UHGV virus genome: UHGV-0124463
DNA from: a virus
Reading direction: 5' to 3' (one strand)
DNA: 44,748 bases
This document shows, in pieces, positions 7,790 to 44,748 of this stretch. A model generated the notes under the pieces. That model saw only the letters and a list, made by a program, of their open reading frames with translations, had not been told where the DNA came from and ran no database searches. Made by a program: the position numbers and the translations under genes. Every line of letters starts with the position of its first letter. Positions within the stretch are counted from its first letter, which is position 1.

Positions 7790-9415
7790 ATGGCATACAG
7801 CTGGCAAGAACAAATCAAGCCAGCTGGTACCCAGGATATCCAGTGTGATATTGAATATTTGGACAAGTCCTATATTCATGTATACCTAGACGGGGTGGAA
7901 ACTACTGGATACACCTGGACCAGCGCTACTAATATAAGACTGAACTCGGCCCTAACGACGAGCACCACTGTACTGCTAATCCGCAAGACTGAGCGCGAGT
8001 ATCTGTACATTGAATTTGCCAGCGGCTCCCCGTTCATTGAAGTGAATGTAGATTCCCAAAACACTCAGTTCTTGCACTTGGCGCAGGAGCTGGTGGAGGG
8101 GCGAGCTATACCTGGATTCTACGGTACCATTAGTATGAACGGGTACCGCATAGCTGACTTAGCCAACCCGATTAACAACCAAGACGCCGCTACCAAGTCT
8201 TATGTAGATGCCGCGGACACCTTACTGGGGCAACGCATTGACGCAGAGCATGCAGGGTGGGTGGATGCAGTAGCCGCCGAGGCAGCTACACGTAAAGCTG
8301 CAGACGACGCGCTAGATGTTCGTACTACCAACCTAGAGCAGACCTTTATCTCTGGGGAGCCTACTGTAAGCTATCCTTGGTATACTGTACTGGCTGAGGC
8401 TACTGACGAGGTAACGCCTGGATTGTCTTTCACAAAGGCTATAGTGTATGTGCAAGGCGTAAACCAGATTCCCGGCTATAGTTTTGAGGTGGTGGATAAT
8501 ACCCTACTGTTTGCAGAGGTACTTCCAGCAGGTACGTTGGTATCTGCCAGATTGGGTTATGACGCAGAGTTGTCGGAAACTTACGCCACAGCTACGGCAT
8601 TAGGGGAAGAGGCGTCAGCCAGGGCAAATGCCGATGCTCAGATAATTCTGGACTATCAAGCGGCAGTAGCGGCCAAGGCAGCCAAGGGTGCTAACTCCGA
8701 CATCACGAGCTTAAGTGGGCTGACTACTCCGCTGAGTAAAGCTCAAGGTGGTACTGGAAATACCTCTGGTGCCGCTGATTCGGCTGCAAAGCTAGCCACA
8801 GCAAGGGCCTTGGTGGTGGATTTGACGTCCACTACGCCCGCCAGTTTTGATGGTACGACCGACGCTACTCTGGGGGCAACCGGCAGTCTGCCGATTACAA
8901 AGGGGGGCACCGGGGCCGGTGACGCTGCTACTGCTAGGGCCAATCTGGGAGCAGCGGCGTCCGGTAGCAACGGCGACATCACGGCATTAACTGGGTTGAG
9001 CGGCGGTATATCCGGCTGCACTGACGGTGCAGCTGCAGCCGCCGGTGTAGTGGGGGAAGTCCTGAGTGCTGTAACTGCGGCAGCTGTAAGTGTTACTAGC
9101 GGCACCCCATTGAACGTTCTGTCCTTGAGCCTACCGGCGGGGGAGTACGAGCTTGAGAGTGCCCTGTTAGTCACTAATAGTGGCAACGTTACTGCTCTCA
9201 GTTTTGGAGTTAGTAGCACCAGCGCAGTGTTACCTAGCAACTGGTACGACTTATATTCCATAACCACCACGTTAGCGGCTGGGAATTCTTCGAGACAGGG
9301 CATGTCGCGCCGTCTACGGCTAAGTGCAACAACCACTGTGTACCTGGTAGCACAGGCCACCTTTACCGGGACCTGTACTGCCCAAGGTTATATTAGAGCG
9401 ATGAGGGTAAGATAA
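7790..9415 (+). CDS. tail fiber protein with T7 gp17-like N-terminal adaptor domain
   Basis: 541 aa; N-terminal ~150 aa resemble the T7 tail-fiber N-terminal pattern, Gly/Ala/Thr-rich distal region; position before terminase genes. Confidence 0.6.
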   Translation: MAYSWQEQIKPAGTQDIQCDIEYLDKSYIHVYLDGVETTGYTWTSATNIRLNSALTTSTTVLLIRKTEREYLYIEFASGSPFIEVNVDSQNTQFLHLAQELVEGRAIPGFYGTISMNGYRIADLANPINNQDAATKSYVDAADTLLGQRIDAEHAGWVDAVAAEAATRKAADDALDVRTTNLEQTFISGEPTVSYPWYTVLAEATDEVTPGLSFTKAIVYVQGVNQIPGYSFEVVDNTLLFAEVLPAGTLVSARLGYDAELSETYATATALGEEASARANADAQIILDYQAAVAAKAAKGANSDITSLSGLTTPLSKAQGGTGNTSGAADSAAKLATARALVVDLTSTTPASFDGTTDATLGATGSLPITKGGTGAGDAATARANLGAAASGSNGDITALTGLSGGISGCTDGAAAAAGVVGEVLSAVTAAAVSVTSGTPLNVLSLSLPAGEYELESALLVTNSGNVTALSFGVSSTSAVLPSNWYDLYSITTTLAAGNSSRQGMSRRLRLSATTTVYLVAQATFTGTCTAQGYIRAMRVR

Positions 9416-11958: not shown

Positions 11959-12141
11959 ATGGCAATTGCAAAAGCAACCTCAGCGCAACAGCAGGAGCTG
12001 TTGCGTCAGCTGAACATTCTCGGTAAGGACCTGTATGCTATCCTTACGCAGCCGCAGAACGTGGCCCAGACTGGTGCTGCCTTCGATACCAAGATTGCTG
12101 CGCTTGAAGCCGCGGTGGCCGCAGTGAAGGCTGCTAGCTAA
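11959..12141 (+). CDS. hypothetical small protein
   Basis: 60-aa ORF with RBS GGAGAG upstream, Ala/Gln-rich helical-looking. Confidence 0.35.
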   Translation: MAIAKATSAQQQELLRQLNILGKDLYAILTQPQNVAQTGAAFDTKIAALEAAVAAVKAAS

Positions 12142-12545
12142 TGCGTAAACTGGTCGCTGGGTTGCTGCTCGCGGTTACTCTGACTGGTTGCTCGGCGACC
12201 TCTGCACTCACCGGCTTAGTTGGTTCTAAGCCGGATGTATCTGCTCAGGTTGGTGCCGAGAACACCAAACAAACCGTTGGCTTGAATAACAAGGTGGACT
12301 CCAGCACCACCAACAAAACTGATGTACAGGATTCTAACGTAGGCACTTTGGACACGTCCAGTAAGAAGCAGGTGCAAACTATTAGCACCGGGACAATCCA
12401 GGCAGAACGCCTGCAGGTGGTTAACAATGATAGTTACAGTCTTATCCTCGCCGGATTAGCTGGGGCCAGTATTCCTCTGGTCTTCCTAGTGGTCATTCTG
12501 GTGATTCGTAAGCTGTTCAGGAAGAAGGGGCAGCAGGATGATTAA
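12141..12545 (+). CDS. spanin-like lipoprotein with C-terminal transmembrane anchor (unimolecular spanin candidate)
   Basis: N-terminal signal plus lipobox LTGC, Ser/Thr-rich periplasmic region, C-terminal hydrophobic helix followed by RKLFRKK. Confidence 0.5.
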   Translation: MRKLVAGLLLAVTLTGCSATSALTGLVGSKPDVSAQVGAENTKQTVGLNNKVDSSTTNKTDVQDSNVGTLDTSSKKQVQTISTGTIQAERLQVVNNDSYSLILAGLAGASIPLVFLVVILVIRKLFRKKGQQDD

Positions 12546-12789
12546 GGTGGGAGACATGGTTGGAGCAGACCTCGCTACCCGGGCAGGTGCAGCAGTTACC
12601 GGCGCTACGGTATCAGGAGGTTGGTTGGCAGAGTTAATGAGCTGGAACTGGAGCACTATCAGCTTCATCACTGCGACTGTGTGCGCAGTGCTAACCCTGG
12701 CGTGGAATGCGTATTACAAGCGACGTACATTCAAGCTCCTAGAAGAGCAGGCGCGTAAGGGGACTATTAAATATGAGTTTAAGGACTAA
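12538..12789 (+). CDS. holin (pinholin-like) candidate
   Basis: 83 aa, weakly hydrophobic Gly/Ala-rich first segment and strongly hydrophobic second helix, charged C-terminus; sits immediately upstream of the SAR endolysin. Confidence 0.45.
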   Translation: MIKVGDMVGADLATRAGAAVTGATVSGGWLAELMSWNWSTISFITATVCAVLTLAWNAYYKRRTFKLLEEQARKGTIKYEFKD

Positions 12790-13381
12790 GGTTATTGCGG
12801 CCCTCACGGGGGCCACTATGCTGGGTGGTGCTATTACCGGGGTGGTTCAGCACAACGAGGGATTGAGCCTTACCGCCTATAAGGATAGTGCCGGTGTCCC
12901 TACAATCTGCTACGGGGAGACAAAGGGCGTCAAGATGGGCCAGAGAGCCACGCTGAGCGATTGTCAGAAGCAACTGATAGAATCAGCAGGGGCACATGCA
13001 AAGGCTCTTGACGGGCTTCCTATGCAGCTCTCTGACGTAGCTCTGGTTGGGTCTGTAGACTTCATTTATAACGTAGGCGTAGCTGGCTTCAACGGCAGTG
13101 CTGTGAAGCGGCACCTCAAAAGCCTGAATTACGCAGAAGCTGGAAAGGCCGTACTGGACTGGCGCTATATTAGCAAGTATCAGCAGAAATCCCCGGGCAT
13201 CGGTTGGGTGTACAAGGGCAGCAACCGCTGGACCTTCGACTGCTCTCAGTATATTAACGGGCAGCGCAATAAAGTGTGCTGGGGCCTATGGGAGCGCAGA
13301 CAGTGGCAGAGCAAGGCCATTGGGAATCAGTATAAGAATGTAAATGCTGCAGTGGCAGCTCTTACTAAGACCGGAGGATAA
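12773..13381 (+). CDS. SAR endolysin, T4-lysozyme-type muramidase
   Basis: N-terminal signal-anchor-release-like segment VIAALTGATMLGGAITGVV; catalytic E-8aa-D-5aa-T in NEGLSLTAYKDSAGVPT. Confidence 0.75.
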   Translation: MSLRTKVIAALTGATMLGGAITGVVQHNEGLSLTAYKDSAGVPTICYGETKGVKMGQRATLSDCQKQLIESAGAHAKALDGLPMQLSDVALVGSVDFIYNVGVAGFNGSAVKRHLKSLNYAEAGKAVLDWRYISKYQQKSPGIGWVYKGSNRWTFDCSQYINGQRNKVCWGLWERRQWQSKAIGNQYKNVNAAVAALTKTGG

Positions 13382-15337
13382 ATGGCGTTAATTAGATTAG
13401 TAGCTCCAGAGCGGGTATTCTCCGACTTGGCGAGCATGGTAGCATATCCAAACTTTCAGGTACAGGACAAGATTATCCTGCTGGGCAGCGCCGGTGGGGA
13501 CTTCACCTTTACTACTGCCGCGTCGGTAGTGGATAACGGAACTGTGTTTGCTGTACCTGGTGGGTATCTACTCCGTAAATTCGTGGGTCCGGCATACAGC
13601 TCCTGGTTCAGCAATTGGGCGGGCATAGTAACGTTCATGAGCGCACCTAATAGGCACCTGGTTGTGGACACAGTCCTGCAGGCCACGAGTGTGCTCAACA
13701 TCAAAAGCAACTCTACGCTGGAGTTTACTGATACCGGAAGAATCCTGCCGGATGCCTCGGTTGCACGTCAAGTGCTTAACATTATCGGCTCGGCACCCTC
13801 GGCATTCGTCCCGTTAGCGGCGGATGCCACAGCGGGCAGCAAAGTCATTACGGTGGCTGCCGGGGCTTTGTCTGCGGTAAAAGGTACGTACTTGTATCTT
13901 CGCTCTAACAAGCTGTGTGATGGTGGTCCTAACACCTACGGTGTAAAGATTTCCCAGATTAGGAAAGTGGTGGGGGTTAGCACCTCCGGTGGCGTCACCA
14001 GTATTCGGCTGGATAAAGCGCTGCACTATAACTACTACCTGTCTGATGCCGCGGAAGTAGGTATCCCGACAATGGTGGAGAACGTAACCTTAGTATCCCC
14101 GTACATCAACGAGTTCGGCTACGACGATTTGAACCGGTTCTTTACTATCGGTATCTCTGCCAACTTTGCCGCGGACTTGCACATCCAGGACGGGGTTATT
14201 ATTGGCAACAAACGCCCCGGGGCTTCTGATATAGAAGGGCGTAGTGCTATCAAGTTCAATAACTGCGTAGATAGTACCGTTAAGGGTACGTGCTTCTACA
14301 ACATCGGATGGTACGGGGTAGAGGTGCTCGGCTGCTCAGAGGACACGGAAGTACACGATATCCACGCCATGGACGTACGCCACGCAATCTCTCTGAACTG
14401 GCAGAGCACTGCAGACGGGGACAAGTGGGGAGAGCCTATCGAGTTCTTAGGCGTTAACTGCGAAGCCTACAGCACAACCCATGCCGGGTTTGATACTCAC
14501 GACATTGGTAAGCGTGTGAAGTTCGTTCGCTGCGTTTCATACGACAGTGCTGACGATGGGTTCCAAGCGCGCACTAACGGGGTAGAGTACTTGAACTGTC
14601 GAGCTTACCGCGCAGCATTTGATGGGTTCGCCTCCAACACCGGTGTAGGCTTCCCTATCTATAGAGAGTGCTTAGCTTATGACAACGTACGCTCTGGCTT
14701 TAACTGTTCGTACGGTGGTGGCTACGTTTATGACTGTGAGGCTCACGGTAGCCAGAACGGTGTCCGCACCAACGGAGGTTGTGTTAAAGGCGGTCGGTAC
14801 ACTCGCAACTCCAGCTCTCACATCTTCGTCACTAAGGATGTAGCTGAGACGGCGCAGACGTCCCTGGAGATTGATGGCGTGAGCATGCGCTACGACGGTA
14901 CCGGAAGAGCTGTGTACTTCCACGGGACTATGGGCATTAACCCTACCATGGTATCTATGTCCAATAATGACATGACCGGTCACGGCTTGTCCTGGGCATT
15001 ACTGAGTGGCTACACTGTTCAACCTACGCCTCCGCGCATGTCCAGGAACTTACTGGATGACACAGGTATCCGTGGAGTGGCAACGCTGGTTGCTGGCGAG
15101 GCTACAGTCAACGCCCGTGTACGCGGAAACTTTGGCAGCGTAGCTAACTCCTTCAAGTGGGTGTCTGAGGTTAAGTTGACGCGGTTAACCTTTCCTTCTA
15201 GTGCTGGGGCCTTGACGGTTACTGGCGTAGCACAGAACCAGGATGTACCTACACCTAATCCGGACCTAAACAGCTTCGTGATTAGGAGTAGTAACGCAGC
15301 GGATGTATCCCAGGTAGCCTGGGAGGTGTATCTCTAA
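13382..15337 (+). CDS. tailspike / polysaccharide depolymerase candidate
   Basis: 651 aa, rich in Gly/Asn/Thr/Val with periodic beta-strand-like repeats and scattered Cys; placed after the lysis cassette. Confidence 0.45.
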   Translation: MALIRLVAPERVFSDLASMVAYPNFQVQDKIILLGSAGGDFTFTTAASVVDNGTVFAVPGGYLLRKFVGPAYSSWFSNWAGIVTFMSAPNRHLVVDTVLQATSVLNIKSNSTLEFTDTGRILPDASVARQVLNIIGSAPSAFVPLAADATAGSKVITVAAGALSAVKGTYLYLRSNKLCDGGPNTYGVKISQIRKVVGVSTSGGVTSIRLDKALHYNYYLSDAAEVGIPTMVENVTLVSPYINEFGYDDLNRFFTIGISANFAADLHIQDGVIIGNKRPGASDIEGRSAIKFNNCVDSTVKGTCFYNIGWYGVEVLGCSEDTEVHDIHAMDVRHAISLNWQSTADGDKWGEPIEFLGVNCEAYSTTHAGFDTHDIGKRVKFVRCVSYDSADDGFQARTNGVEYLNCRAYRAAFDGFASNTGVGFPIYRECLAYDNVRSGFNCSYGGGYVYDCEAHGSQNGVRTNGGCVKGGRYTRNSSSHIFVTKDVAETAQTSLEIDGVSMRYDGTGRAVYFHGTMGINPTMVSMSNNDMTGHGLSWALLSGYTVQPTPPRMSRNLLDDTGIRGVATLVAGEATVNARVRGNFGSVANSFKWVSEVKLTRLTFPSSAGALTVTGVAQNQDVPTPNPDLNSFVIRSSNAADVSQVAWEVYL

Positions 15338-15433
15338 GTAGCTCCCTGGGGTATCTCTATGGTATCCCGGGGCACTACTTGGGGTGCACGTCTATACCTG
15401 GACCTGAAATTTATTAGACTTTAAAATGAGGAT

Positions 15434-15895
15434 ATGTCTATGAACATCAAATATGACACAACATCCCCTAGCTGCTTGGTGTGGCTCAAGGGTAGGCGCG
15501 CCGGTGCTCCAGCGGGTACCCGCAACACTCGTGGCTACTGGGTGGTACAGGTATCTGGTAGAAAGATACAGGCACACCGCCTCATCTGGGAACTACACAA
15601 CGGGCCTATTCCAGACGGATATGTGGTGGACCACATCAACCAAAACCCCAGTGACAACCGCCTAGAGAACCTGCGCTTGGCTACTCTCAGTGAGAATAAC
15701 TGCAATGCTCGCAGGGCTGAGCGCGAACACCCTAGAGGCGTATACTACACTGGCACTTGCTGGCGCGGGGAGTTCTGGAAGGACGGTAAGCGTTATATGA
15801 AGAAGCACAGCTCCTACGAGGTTATCTGCAAGTGGGTACAAGAGAAACGTCAAGAGCAACACAAGGCCTTCACCCCGGGGCAGGTGTATATCTGA
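15434..15895 (+). CDS. HNH homing endonuclease with AP2-like DNA-binding domain
   Basis: Motif VVDHINQNPSDNRLENLRLATLSEN followed by GVYYTGTCWRGEFWKDGKRY. Confidence 0.75.
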   Translation: MSMNIKYDTTSPSCLVWLKGRRAGAPAGTRNTRGYWVVQVSGRKIQAHRLIWELHNGPIPDGYVVDHINQNPSDNRLENLRLATLSENNCNARRAEREHPRGVYYTGTCWRGEFWKDGKRYMKKHSSYEVICKWVQEKRQEQHKAFTPGQVYI

Positions 15896-16425
15896 AACCA
15901 AAAATTATTATACTCGCCCTTGGGCCTCCCTCACCCTCAGCGCGAGCAATTGCCCCCATAGGGGGTGCCTAGCGCATAAACAGAGGGGGTGGGGCCACCT
16001 AGGGCGCACTAGTAGGCACCAGCGGGCCTCAGCGGGCCTGTGCTGCGTTCTAGTGCTATCGCTAGTGCTACCCTATGGCTATCCCTGTGCGTTCACTAGG
16101 GCGCTTCCTGTGCGCTCTCTGTGGGCCATAGGGGTGCGCTCTGCCTTACCTATTTTGTGCGCCTCAGTGTGGCACCTAGGGGCGTGTCCATTGCTTATTT
16201 TGCGCGTCCATAGTGGGCCCGCCTAGTGCGCTGTAGTGCGTCACGGTGCTATCCCTAGTATGCACTAGGCGATCCACTGGCTATCCCTAGTGCTTTACAT
16301 TGTGCCGATTATATGCTACGCTGCGCGCTCCCCCCTAGGGCGCACATCCTCACCCAACACTATCCCGGCGCTATCTCTTTGCTATCCTTTTGCTCTTACT
16401 TTCATTCGAAAGCTGTCATGAAATG
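15896..16425. repeat. repeat-rich non-coding region (short direct repeats and recurring 10-mer CTAGGGCGCA); probable genome-terminus region
   Basis: No credible ORF; CTAGGGCGCA at 15999 and 16335 (9/10 at 16096; also 17330), tandem cagcgggcct x2, repeated ctagtgcta and ctatccct. Confidence 0.5.
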
Positions 16426-43062: not shown

Positions 43063-44748
43063 ATGGCGCAATCATTAGAAGGTACTATTCAGAGCTTGCT
43101 GCAGGGCGTTTCCCAGCAGGTTCCGAGAGAGCGCCAACCAGGACAACTGGGGGCGCAGCTGAACATGCTCAGCGACCCGGTTTCCGGTATCCGCCGCAGA
43201 CCCCCGGGTGAGATTGTCTGGGAAAGCACGATTGATAATCCAGGGCTTGATTCCCTGTTCACTGAATACGTAGAGCGTGGAACTGACGGCAGGCACCTGC
43301 TGATTAACACCAGCAACGGTAACTGGTGGTTACTGGCTAAGAATGGAAAGACCATCCTTAACTCCGGAAACGACCCGTACTTTATTACCACCGTGGGTCA
43401 GACCTCTTTGCAGACCGCGAGTATTGCTGGACTGACTTATATCCTGAATACGGAGATGGCCCCGAACACAACCGTGGACAATACGGGGCGTATTGACCCA
43501 GGCACCACTGGGTTCTTCTACGTTAAATCTGCAGCATTCCAGAAACGCTGGAACGTCACTGTTACATCTGCCGGGGTAGATTACTCCGGGGACTACACCG
43601 CCCCAGCTGCTGGCAGTACCAGTGGTAACGCTGAGGAGGTATCAGGTGCCTACGTTGCTCAGCAGCTGCGAGACTCTCTTGTAGCGAATGGATTGCCAGC
43701 TGGGAACGTTAGCGTACGCGGCGCATACTTGTTCTTCTATGGGTTGAGCAACTGTGTGGTATCCTCCGACGCTGGCGATACTTATGCTGGGGTATCCAAC
43801 CAGTCTCGTGTAGACCAGGAGCAGGACCTACCTGCACAGCTCCCAGCGCAAGCTGACGGGGCGATGTGTCGTGTAGGTACAGCCTCGTCTGAGACAGCGT
43901 GGTACCAGTTCAGCTACAGCACCCGCACCTGGTCTGAGGTGGGAGCGTACGGCAGCATCACCAAGATTACGAACATGCCCCGAGAGCTTGCTGCAGATGA
44001 CAACATTATTGCGCGGGATTGGGAGGGGCGTTTAGCTGGTAACGACGACAATAACAGCGACCCCGGATTCGTGGAGAATGGATACATCACCGGCATTGCA
44101 GCTTTCCAGGGCCGCTTGGTTCTGCTTAGTGGTAGCTCCGTGGATATGTCTGCCTCAGGTCTGTACCAGCGCTTCTACCGCTCCACTGTGACGTCTCTGC
44201 TGGATACGGACCGTATCAGCATTAGCTCTGCGTCTGCACAGGATTCTGTGTATCGTACCGCTGTGCAGTTCAACCGGGACTTGGTCCTGTTTGCTAACAG
44301 CATGCAGGCGGTTGTGCCGGGTTCAGCGGTACTCACCCCCACTAACGCAAGTATTAGCATCACCAGCACCTACGAGTGTGATAGCCGTGTGACTCCGGTA
44401 ATGGCGGGGCAGACGGTAATCTACCCGAATAAGCGCAACAACAGCTACGCGGGTATACTGGAGCTAATCCCATCACCATATACTGCGGCGCAGTACACTA
44501 CGCAGGACGCCACGGTGCACCTGCCGCGGTACATTCCCGGCAGGGTATTGCAGATGCAAAACTCCAGTGTCACCAATATGGCCTTCTCACGAATGTCCGG
44601 AGAGCGAAATAACCTGCTGGTCTATGAGTTTATGTGGGGTGGGAGTGATGGTGCTAAGATGCAAGCGTCGTGGCATAAATGGACGTTCCCATATCCAATC
44701 CTGAGCGTGCAGGCGCTGGAGGATGAGGTGTTCTTGTATATGCAAGGG
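43063..44748 (+). CDS. tail tubular protein B (T7 gp12-like), 5' portion; continues at window start
   Basis: ATG 43063 after AAGGAGAGG; frame stays open to the last base and continues in frame into 32..748 via the 54-bp repeat. Confidence 0.7.
   Translation, partial: MAQSLEGTIQSLLQGVSQQVPRERQPGQLGAQLNMLSDPVSGIRRRPPGEIVWESTIDNPGLDSLFTEYVERGTDGRHLLINTSNGNWWLLAKNGKTILNSGNDPYFITTVGQTSLQTASIAGLTYILNTEMAPNTTVDNTGRIDPGTTGFFYVKSAAFQKRWNVTVTSAGVDYSGDYTAPAAGSTSGNAEEVSGAYVAQQLRDSLVANGLPAGNVSVRGAYLFFYGLSNCVVSSDAGDTYAGVSNQSRVDQEQDLPAQLPAQADGAMCRVGTASSETAWYQFSYSTRTWSEVGAYGSITKITNMPRELAADDNIIARDWEGRLAGNDDNNSDPGFVENGYITGIAAFQGRLVLLSGSSVDMSASGLYQRFYRSTVTSLLDTDRISISSASAQDSVYRTAVQFNRDLVLFANSMQAVVPGSAVLTPTNASISITSTYECDSRVTPVMAGQTVIYPNKRNNSYAGILELIPSPYTAAQYTTQDATVHLPRYIPGRVLQMQNSSVTNMAFSRMSGERNNLLVYEFMWGGSDGAKMQASWHKWTFPYPILSVQALEDEVFLYMQG

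Follow-up and report, generated by a model that had tools for sequence, protein, structure and literature searches.

A gene very probably encoding a K1 capsule-specific polysaccharide lyase at the second receptor-binding protein locus of a Drulisvirus genome

Within the DNA stretch UHGV-0124463 (44,748 nt; hereafter the window, meaning the stretch at its full length), the plus-strand gene at 13382-15337 very probably encodes a K1 capsule-specific polysaccharide lyase, the second receptor-binding protein (RBP2) or tailspike of a Drulisvirus podophage. The window is a complete phage genome with ~90% nucleotide identity to numerous Drulisvirus phages of Klebsiella. An earlier, sequence-only reading had taken the 651-amino-acid product for a second receptor-binding tailspike or depolymerase, directed at capsule or O-antigen and determining host range. 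The first of these proposals is borne out by near identity to a characterised K1 lyase, an orthologue in which the substitution R472A impairs phage adsorption and infectivity. The target can be narrowed to capsule, specifically K1, while the O-antigen drops out, and a role in host range agrees with the unrelated enzymes that sister phages carry at the same locus.

Identity and domain architecture of the lyase

The open reading frame (ORF) is present exactly as first read, from its ATG start to its TAA stop on the plus strand, and is the longest by far across its stretch, with no comparable ORF overlapping it on either strand. In a sequence search of the PDB, the entries 7W1C, 7W1D and 7W1E, deposited as 'K1 LYASE', match residues 1-651 without gaps (E=0), and the protein is 97.2% identical in amino acids and 95.2% in nucleotides to ORF34 of phage NTUH-K2044-K1-1 (YP_009098385), from which it differs by 18 substitutions in 651 positions and zero indels. 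Since only 18 of the 89 differing codons are non-synonymous, the gene is evidently under purifying selection and therefore a real one. It recurs at 90-97% nucleotide identity in 51 phage records, nearly all of Klebsiella phages, with K1 hosts named for several of them (NTUH-K2044, K1 NCTC5054). PHROG 18512 matches the protein at full length, the identical protein sequence occurs in public collections on eight independent contigs of ~44 kb each, and the public 90%-identity cluster to which it belongs counts 357 members. Homology to known depolymerases, which the sequence-only reading had proposed as a check, thus leads to a virion K1 lyase over the full length, and no reading as a non-virion homologue emerges. 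The gene and its parts are as follows.

13382-15337, plus strand: probable K1 capsule-specific polysaccharide lyase gene (RBP2, tailspike), 651 amino acids and stop codon, ATG start, TAA stop
13382-13402, plus strand: N-terminal heptapeptide MALIRLV, which fits the docking motif MALxxLV (from the sequence and the motif in PMC6872550)
13382-13594, plus strand: residues 1-71, N-terminal domain, putative particle-binding and trimerisation 'head' (Pfam PF24145 K1-lyase_N, E=9e-40, 135 bits)
13592-15058, plus strand: residues 71-559, central right-handed β-helix, bearing the catalytic groove and the inter-subunit non-catalytic pocket (domain limits from PMC8822698)
13805-14071, plus strand: residues 142-230, 'rider' β-barrel insertion at β-helix rung 2 (Pfam PF24149 K1-lyase_Rider, E=2.8e-37, 127 bits)
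15059-15334, plus strand: residues 560-651, C-terminal β-sandwich domain (Pfam PF24146 K1-lyase_C, residues 563-649, E=2.1e-16, 61 bits)

All three K1-lyase matches lie above the Pfam cut-off of 27 bits, and a weak match to Pfam Beta_helix, at residues 359-467, falls under its curated cut-off. The ORF34 enzyme of NTUH-K2044-K1-1 is a trimer of 14-rung right-handed β-helices (PMC8822698), with a crystal structure that includes a product complex at 1.46 Å (PMC8822698; PDB 7W1C/D/E). In this enzyme the N-terminal domain was described as a putative particle-binding domain, and the rider lends stability to the trimer and takes part in both carbohydrate sites (PMC8822698). By homology, the window lyase would equally be a homotrimeric right-handed β-helix. 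The β-helix that had been surmised from the amino acid composition is thus upheld by the crystal structure of a 97%-identical protein, whereas the composition as such cannot be scored.

We also observed three positions at which the window protein agrees with the GenBank sequence of the NTUH phage but not with the PDB construct: the construct has Ala-Ala in place of Asp-Asp at ~391-392 and Thr in place of Ala at ~213. Of the two Asp positions, one or both are Asp in all natural sequences read.

Catalytic and capsule-binding residues

The orthologue is established as a K1-specific lyase by liquid chromatography-mass spectrometry together with the product complex (PMC8822698). A long groove with positive charge accommodates the K1 capsular polysaccharide, which the enzyme cleaves by syn β-elimination at glucuronic acid, with Tyr311 as the proposed base, His373 as the acid and Arg397 as the neutraliser of the carboxylate (PMC8822698). 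The products are oligosaccharides of 1-3 repeat units with Δ4,5-unsaturated pyruvylated glucuronic acid at the non-reducing end, and both pyruvylation and O-acetylation are kept (PMC8822698). A second, non-catalytic pocket between subunits, made up of Arg472, Thr474, Arg475, His455 and others, takes hold of the pyruvyl group, and depolymerisation, adsorption and infectivity all depend on it for their efficiency; indeed, phage with R472A in its genome adsorbed less well and was less infective, and R472A relieved product inhibition (PMC8822698).

Comparison of the window protein with these assignments evidences complete conservation: the catalytic and groove residues named for the orthologue, Tyr311, His373 and Arg397 included, are all present at the same positions (21/21), and so are the ten residues of the second site, namely Arg472, Thr474, Arg475, His455, Asp434, Tyr409, Lys177, Asn217, Lys377 and Arg378. 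The chemistry that is supported for the window protein is β-elimination, as in a lyase, and not hydrolysis.

The RBP2 locus, the docking peptide and modular exchange

In KP34-like phages, RBP1 is a T7-type fibre encoded beside the internal virion proteins, and RBP2 is a depolymerase whose gene stands after that of the endolysin, at the extreme right of the genome (Latka 2019, PMC6872550). The window follows this layout. The endolysin stop codon TAA (13379-13381) abuts the lyase ATG at 13382, so that the lyase starts one base after it, and between the lyase and the terminal repeat at the right end there is no further virion gene, only one for an HNH endonuclease (15434-15895); the placement of the lyase after the lysis cassette, as the last structural-type gene before the terminal region, was therefore correctly read. 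It was also correctly set apart from the tail fibre gene (7790-9415), which ends 3,966 bp upstream, with terS and terL between. The separation from the other tail genes is true as a matter of position, but it is the canonical RBP2 site of every KP34-like phage (PMC6872550) and not unusual. The order of genes is that of NTUH-K2044-K1-1, namely fibre, terS, terL, hypothetical protein, spanin, (holin), endolysin, lyase and HNH, and NTUH-K2044-K1-1, Kp2, SRD2021 and AttikonH2 likewise have the RBP2 gene immediately behind that of the endolysin, at the right end.

In such phages RBP2 is proposed to dock onto RBP1, with a short N-terminal peptide of RBP2, MALxxLV, as the attachment element and a T4gp10-like branching domain as its counterpart on RBP1 (PMC6872550), and NTUH-K2044-K1-1, KpV71, KpV475 and KpV41, with RBP2s of 651 amino acids, have been placed in this KP34virus anchor-branch model (Latka 2019, PMC6872550). 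Scaffold experiments with KP32, in which the RBP2 of KP34 was used in the constructs, demonstrated a requirement for the branching domain as well as for the conserved peptide (PMC13352976). The heptapeptide of the window lyase, MALIRLV, fits the motif, and versions of it head unrelated RBP2s of sister phages: MALVNLV in Kp2, MALVKLV in SRD2021 and MALTRLV in AttikonH2. These three phages, of which SRD2021 has a K47 host, have an RBP1 ~91% identical to that of the window and an RBP2 of 584-669 amino acids at the same locus, and in BLASTP comparisons of these RBP2s with the window lyase the best E value was 0.057, so that no significant similarity was found apart from the heptapeptide. Because unrelated RBP2 bodies stand beside ~91% identical RBP1s, the locus behaves as an exchangeable host-range cassette; and the fact that the RBP1 type is kept across phages of different capsule specificity argues that the lyase, and not the fibre, sets the K-type specificity.

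We have considered whether the whole N-terminal domain (residues 1-90) is common to all Drulisvirus RBP2s, and rejected this. A tblastn search with residues 1-90 finds only K1-lyase-type proteins (63 records, 12 of them at <60% identity), and a search with the first 30 residues returns only the 51 close orthologues. What Drulisvirus RBP2s have in common is the heptapeptide alone, in agreement with Latka 2019 (PMC6872550).

Taken as a mechanism, lyase trimers would dock by way of the MALIRLV peptide and the head domain onto the putative branching domain of RBP1 (7790-9415), the virion would strip the K1 capsule and so reach the outer membrane, and the lyase gene would thereby confine the phage to K. 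pneumoniae of type K1 (KL1).

The partner fibre RBP1

The presumed docking partner is the following gene.

7790-9415, plus strand: RBP1 tail fibre, 541 amino acids (Pfam Phage_T7_tail, residues 13-141, 64.7 bits)

Over residues 1-267 this protein is 84% identical to the 318-residue RBP1 of NTUH-K2044-K1-1, the rest being unrelated, and it is 91% identical to gp49 of Kp2. In the PDB, its sequence matches the fibre gp47 of Pectobacterium phage PhiM1 over the full length (8VBX, E=7e-138), and its N-terminus matches the gp44 tailspike adapter of HRP29 (8ES4, E=1.3e-72); in PhiM1, the fibres reportedly carry spike-protein trimers as well. The T4gp10-like branching domain of RBP1 is placed at residues ~186-243, with HHpred probabilities to T4 gp10 of 84-95% for related RBP1s (PMC6872550). 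The window RBP1 is 84-91% identical to RBP1s with such reported matches, and many columns are invariant in the alignment of its region 192-256.

An AlphaFold2 model of RBP1, computed as a monomer of what is a trimer, is confident only in parts (mean pLDDT 61, pTM 0.30). It presents in order the anchor, a long helix (coiled coil), a small, conserved β-domain at 195-255, in the region reported as T4gp10-like, a poorly predicted glycine-rich shaft and a confident jelly-roll at ~421-541. Foldseek searches with this model return TNF/C1q-like lectin folds, namely the N-terminal domain of BC2L-C (TM score 0.59, normalised to the target), ExsFA and Pgp3, over ~120-160 aligned columns. Considering the aligned length and the confident fold, and given that the output has no query coordinates, we infer that these matches belong to the C-terminal jelly-roll tip.

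RBP1 was also considered as a second depolymerase, as enzymatic domains have been predicted in four of five 'group B' first RBPs (Latka 2019, PMC6872550), and this was rejected: Pfam gives only the T7 anchor, the AlphaFold2 model has no β-helix, the Foldseek matches are lectin- or TNF-like, and PhiM1 gp47 is described as a fibre. In fact, no enzyme domain was found in the window RBP1 by Pfam, in the model or by Foldseek, and its lectin-like tip may act as a non-enzymatic secondary receptor binder. The pairing of a long, 541-residue RBP1 with a K1 lyase is already in GenBank, in RCIP0104, RCIP0106 and OU509534. Usable literature on the Kp7 and Kp9 cryo-EM tail complexes was not found.

Allelic variation and alternative explanations

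No result contradicts the assignment as a virion-borne K1 lyase, but some caveats apply. The activity and K1 specificity of the window variant are inferred by orthology. An alignment of 15 family members gives the window protein five private residues, S126, F413, G423, T463 and C467, the remaining differences being common polymorphisms. The head of residues 1-90 is confined to K1-lyase-type proteins, so that either the heptapeptide or the whole head may be the docking part. The docking of a Drulisvirus RBP2 on a long RBP1 of 541 residues is presumed, and T4 gp10 is not among the top Foldseek PDB matches of the whole-chain RBP1 model.

Of the private residues, T463 and C467 come shortly before Arg472 in the sequence and F413 is close to Tyr409, Arg472 and Tyr409 both belonging to the second site. 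One may thus conceive that I463T, R467C and M413F shift the properties of the enzyme (product inhibition, adsorption or tolerance of K1 capsule without pyruvate or acetate), with fold and chemistry unchanged. These residues are indeed unique among the 15 sequences and close to Arg472 and Tyr409, and R472A is known to relieve product inhibition (PMC8822698); yet every sugar-contacting residue is unchanged, the exact sequence on eight independent contigs of ~44 kb points to a viable natural allele and not to an oddity, and polymorphism affects 80 of the 651 positions across the family in a scattered, neutral-looking manner. On balance we hold such a shift to be decidedly unlikely. A broader variant, in which the same substitutions tune affinity, product inhibition or adsorption to K1 capsule of altered pyruvylation or acetylation and, together with the lectin-like RBP1 tip, give a two-receptor mode without counterpart in NTUH-K2044-K1-1, is regarded as unlikely too.

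Far less weight goes to the two explanations that depart from a virion-borne K1 lyase altogether. The protein could be a tailspike of the hydrolase type, or one directed at O-antigen or another K-type, such as a P22-type endorhamnosidase or a glycosidase-type enzyme as in other Drulisvirus phages, which would suit a locus carrying other specificities in sister phages and the generic Pfam Beta_helix match. This is extremely improbable given the 97% identity to a proven K1-specific lyase, the fully conserved Tyr/His/Arg catalytic set and pyruvate-recognition pockets, and the lack of significant similarity to the RBP2s of Kp2, SRD2021 and AttikonH2. It is also very improbable that the protein serves chiefly or exclusively as a soluble depolymerase set free at lysis: its gene does adjoin that of the endolysin, with which it is probably translationally coupled, and RBP2 that was not incorporated into an engineered KP32 phage still gave halos (PMC13352976), but the protein has the MALxxLV docking peptide and an intact head domain, the genomic R472A change in the orthologue cut adsorption and infectivity (PMC8822698), which requires the protein on the particle, and fibre-plus-spike complexes occur in the related PhiM1 and HRP29 virions. 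Free and virion-attached enzyme are, moreover, not mutually exclusive.

Comparison with known systems

The closest characterised relative is K1-ORF34 of NTUH-K2044-K1-1 (YP_009098385; Tu et al. 2022, PMC8822698), which the window lyase resembles in its 651 amino acids, four-part architecture, functional residues, locus and downstream HNH gene; it differs from it by 18 substitutions, five of them private among the 15 sequences, and the prototype phage has an RBP1 of 318 residues as against 541 in the window. Only allelic differences separate the window lyase from Dep_kpv71 of KpV71 and the depolymerases of KpV41, KpV475, RCIP0104, RCIP0106 and OU509534 (95-98% amino acid identity, same locus), of which KpV41 pairs the same lyase with an RBP1 of 858 residues (PMC6872550). 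DepoCatalog recognises one uniform structural 'K1 group 1', which takes in more distant K1-lyase-type enzymes too and within which the Drulisvirus enzymes are >95% identical.

Identity to the window lyase falls to 56-59% in the ~45-kb podophages KPN7, ZK1 and Roth32, to ~37% in ~50-kb phages (vB_LZ2044 and others) and to 33% in S2-4 of the jumbo phage PhiK64-1, whose link to PDB 9K4A ('Depolymerase, capsule K1-specific') is assumed from the deposited molecule name. The 9K4A chain has 922 residues and matches window residues 46-650, with homology starting at its residue 335. These distant K1-lyase-type enzymes are homologous over the β-helix, the rider and the C-terminal domain (residues ~40-651), whereas their N-terminal attachment modules differ; to judge from the sequences, the presence of different attachment modules on one catalytic body illustrates module shuffling between phage lineages.

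With the anchor-branch system of KP34 and its gp57 (Latka 2019, PMC6872550; 2026, PMC13352976) the window shares an RBP2 placed after the endolysin, the MALxxLV peptide and a T7-type RBP1 anchor, but the catalytic body is unrelated, with no similarity past the heptapeptide (PMC6872550), and the window phage falls in 'group B' (long RBP1) whereas KP34 belongs to group A (truncated RBP1). Among other β-helix polysaccharide-lyase tailspikes, KflA of coliphage K5A, a K5 lyase, is likewise trimeric, and its catalytic centre can be superimposed on the K1 lyase centre (PMC8822698); unlike the K1 lyase it acts on K5 heparosan, and it gave no match to the window lyase in the PDB sequence search at E≤1e-3.

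Genome context and neighbouring features

By its sequence, the source phage is a Drulisvirus, that is a KP34-like Klebsiella podophage (Autographiviridae, Slopekvirinae). The window encodes the genes expected for this genus: the single-subunit RNA polymerase, DNA polymerase A, helicase, portal, nozzle, internal virion proteins, T7-type fibre, terS, terL and a lysis cassette. An exact direct repeat of 54 nt stands at both window ends (20-73 = 44695-44748), from which it follows that the assembly is circularised, with a unit length of 44,675. The window is a circularly permuted genome, with the cut point inside the nozzle (tail tubular B) gene. Nucleotides 1-19 lie outside the repeat and may be an assembly-edge artefact. 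Apart from the genes listed above, the following features were located around the lyase gene.

12141-12545: Rz-like/u-spanin gene, preceding the holin
12538-12789: holin gene, preceding the endolysin
12773-13381: endolysin gene (Pfam Phage_lysozyme)
13373-13378, plus strand: Shine-Dalgarno-like GGAGGA within the 3' end of the endolysin gene, read from the sequence
15332-15384, plus strand: strong hairpin over the lyase stop codon, without a U-tract (RNA fold)
15434-15895: HNH endonuclease gene, downstream of the lyase and ahead of the terminal repeat (Pfam HNH_3, E=2.9e-22)
~15930-16141: terminal repeat, collapsed to a single copy (homology to the 234-bp direct terminal repeat of NTUH-K2044-K1-1)

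The abutting endolysin stop and lyase start, together with the Shine-Dalgarno-like element inside the endolysin gene, suggest translational coupling of the two genes. A σ70 promoter scan around the lyase gene found seven candidates against 7.0 expected, which is chance level. The N-terminus of the endolysin (MSLRTKVIAALTGATMLGGAITGVV...) resembles a signal-arrest-release (SAR) anchor and the adjoining holin is a P21-type (pin)holin, so that the lysis genes look like a phiKMV/KP34-style SAR system.

At the other end of the lyase gene, the RNA fold of 15330-15440 reaches −42.6 kcal/mol (z = −4.75), with none of 200 shuffled sequences as stable. The inner stem of the hairpin, CCCYGGGGTATC...GGTATCCCGGGG, is kept in NTUH-K2044-K1-1 and OU509534, and a conserved block of ~40 nt (TGGGGTGCACGTCTATACCTGGACCTGAAATTTATTAGACT) follows. 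The hairpin is a candidate terminator for the phage RNA polymerase or a candidate mRNA-stabilising structure, and hairpin and block are possibly a terminator followed by a promoter. The HNH gene is present at this site in NTUH-K2044-K1-1 and absent in OU509534, Kp2, SRD2021 and AttikonH2, as expected for a mobile, homing-type insertion.

By homology, the segment at ~15930-16141 maps the physical genome ends, the repeat having been collapsed to one copy by assembly. In the ~1.7 kb that follow the terminal repeat (16.1-17.9 kb), the GC content is down at 0.48-0.50 and ORFs are few, in what is an early/promoter region. Over the whole window, neither Rfam at the gathering threshold nor a tRNA scan gave any match. 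Among related records, GenBank OQ503491.1, 'Acinetobacter phage vB_AbaA_LLY', is ~92% identical to the window over most of the genome and encodes a K1 lyase 96.8% identical to that of the window; its labelled host, A. baumannii, looks doubtful.

Significance

The sequence, structure, mechanism, genomic position and modular exchange of the K1 lyase are all already known, and the window gene adds one more natural allele to a well-sampled and strongly conserved enzyme family, opening no new question. The K1 capsule is a hallmark of hypervirulent, liver-abscess-associated K. pneumoniae, and K1 lyases are under development for anti-virulence use and for the preparation of glycoconjugate vaccines. 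For the phage itself, the identification of the lyase marks it as a probably K1-specific Drulisvirus and locates its host-range cassette.

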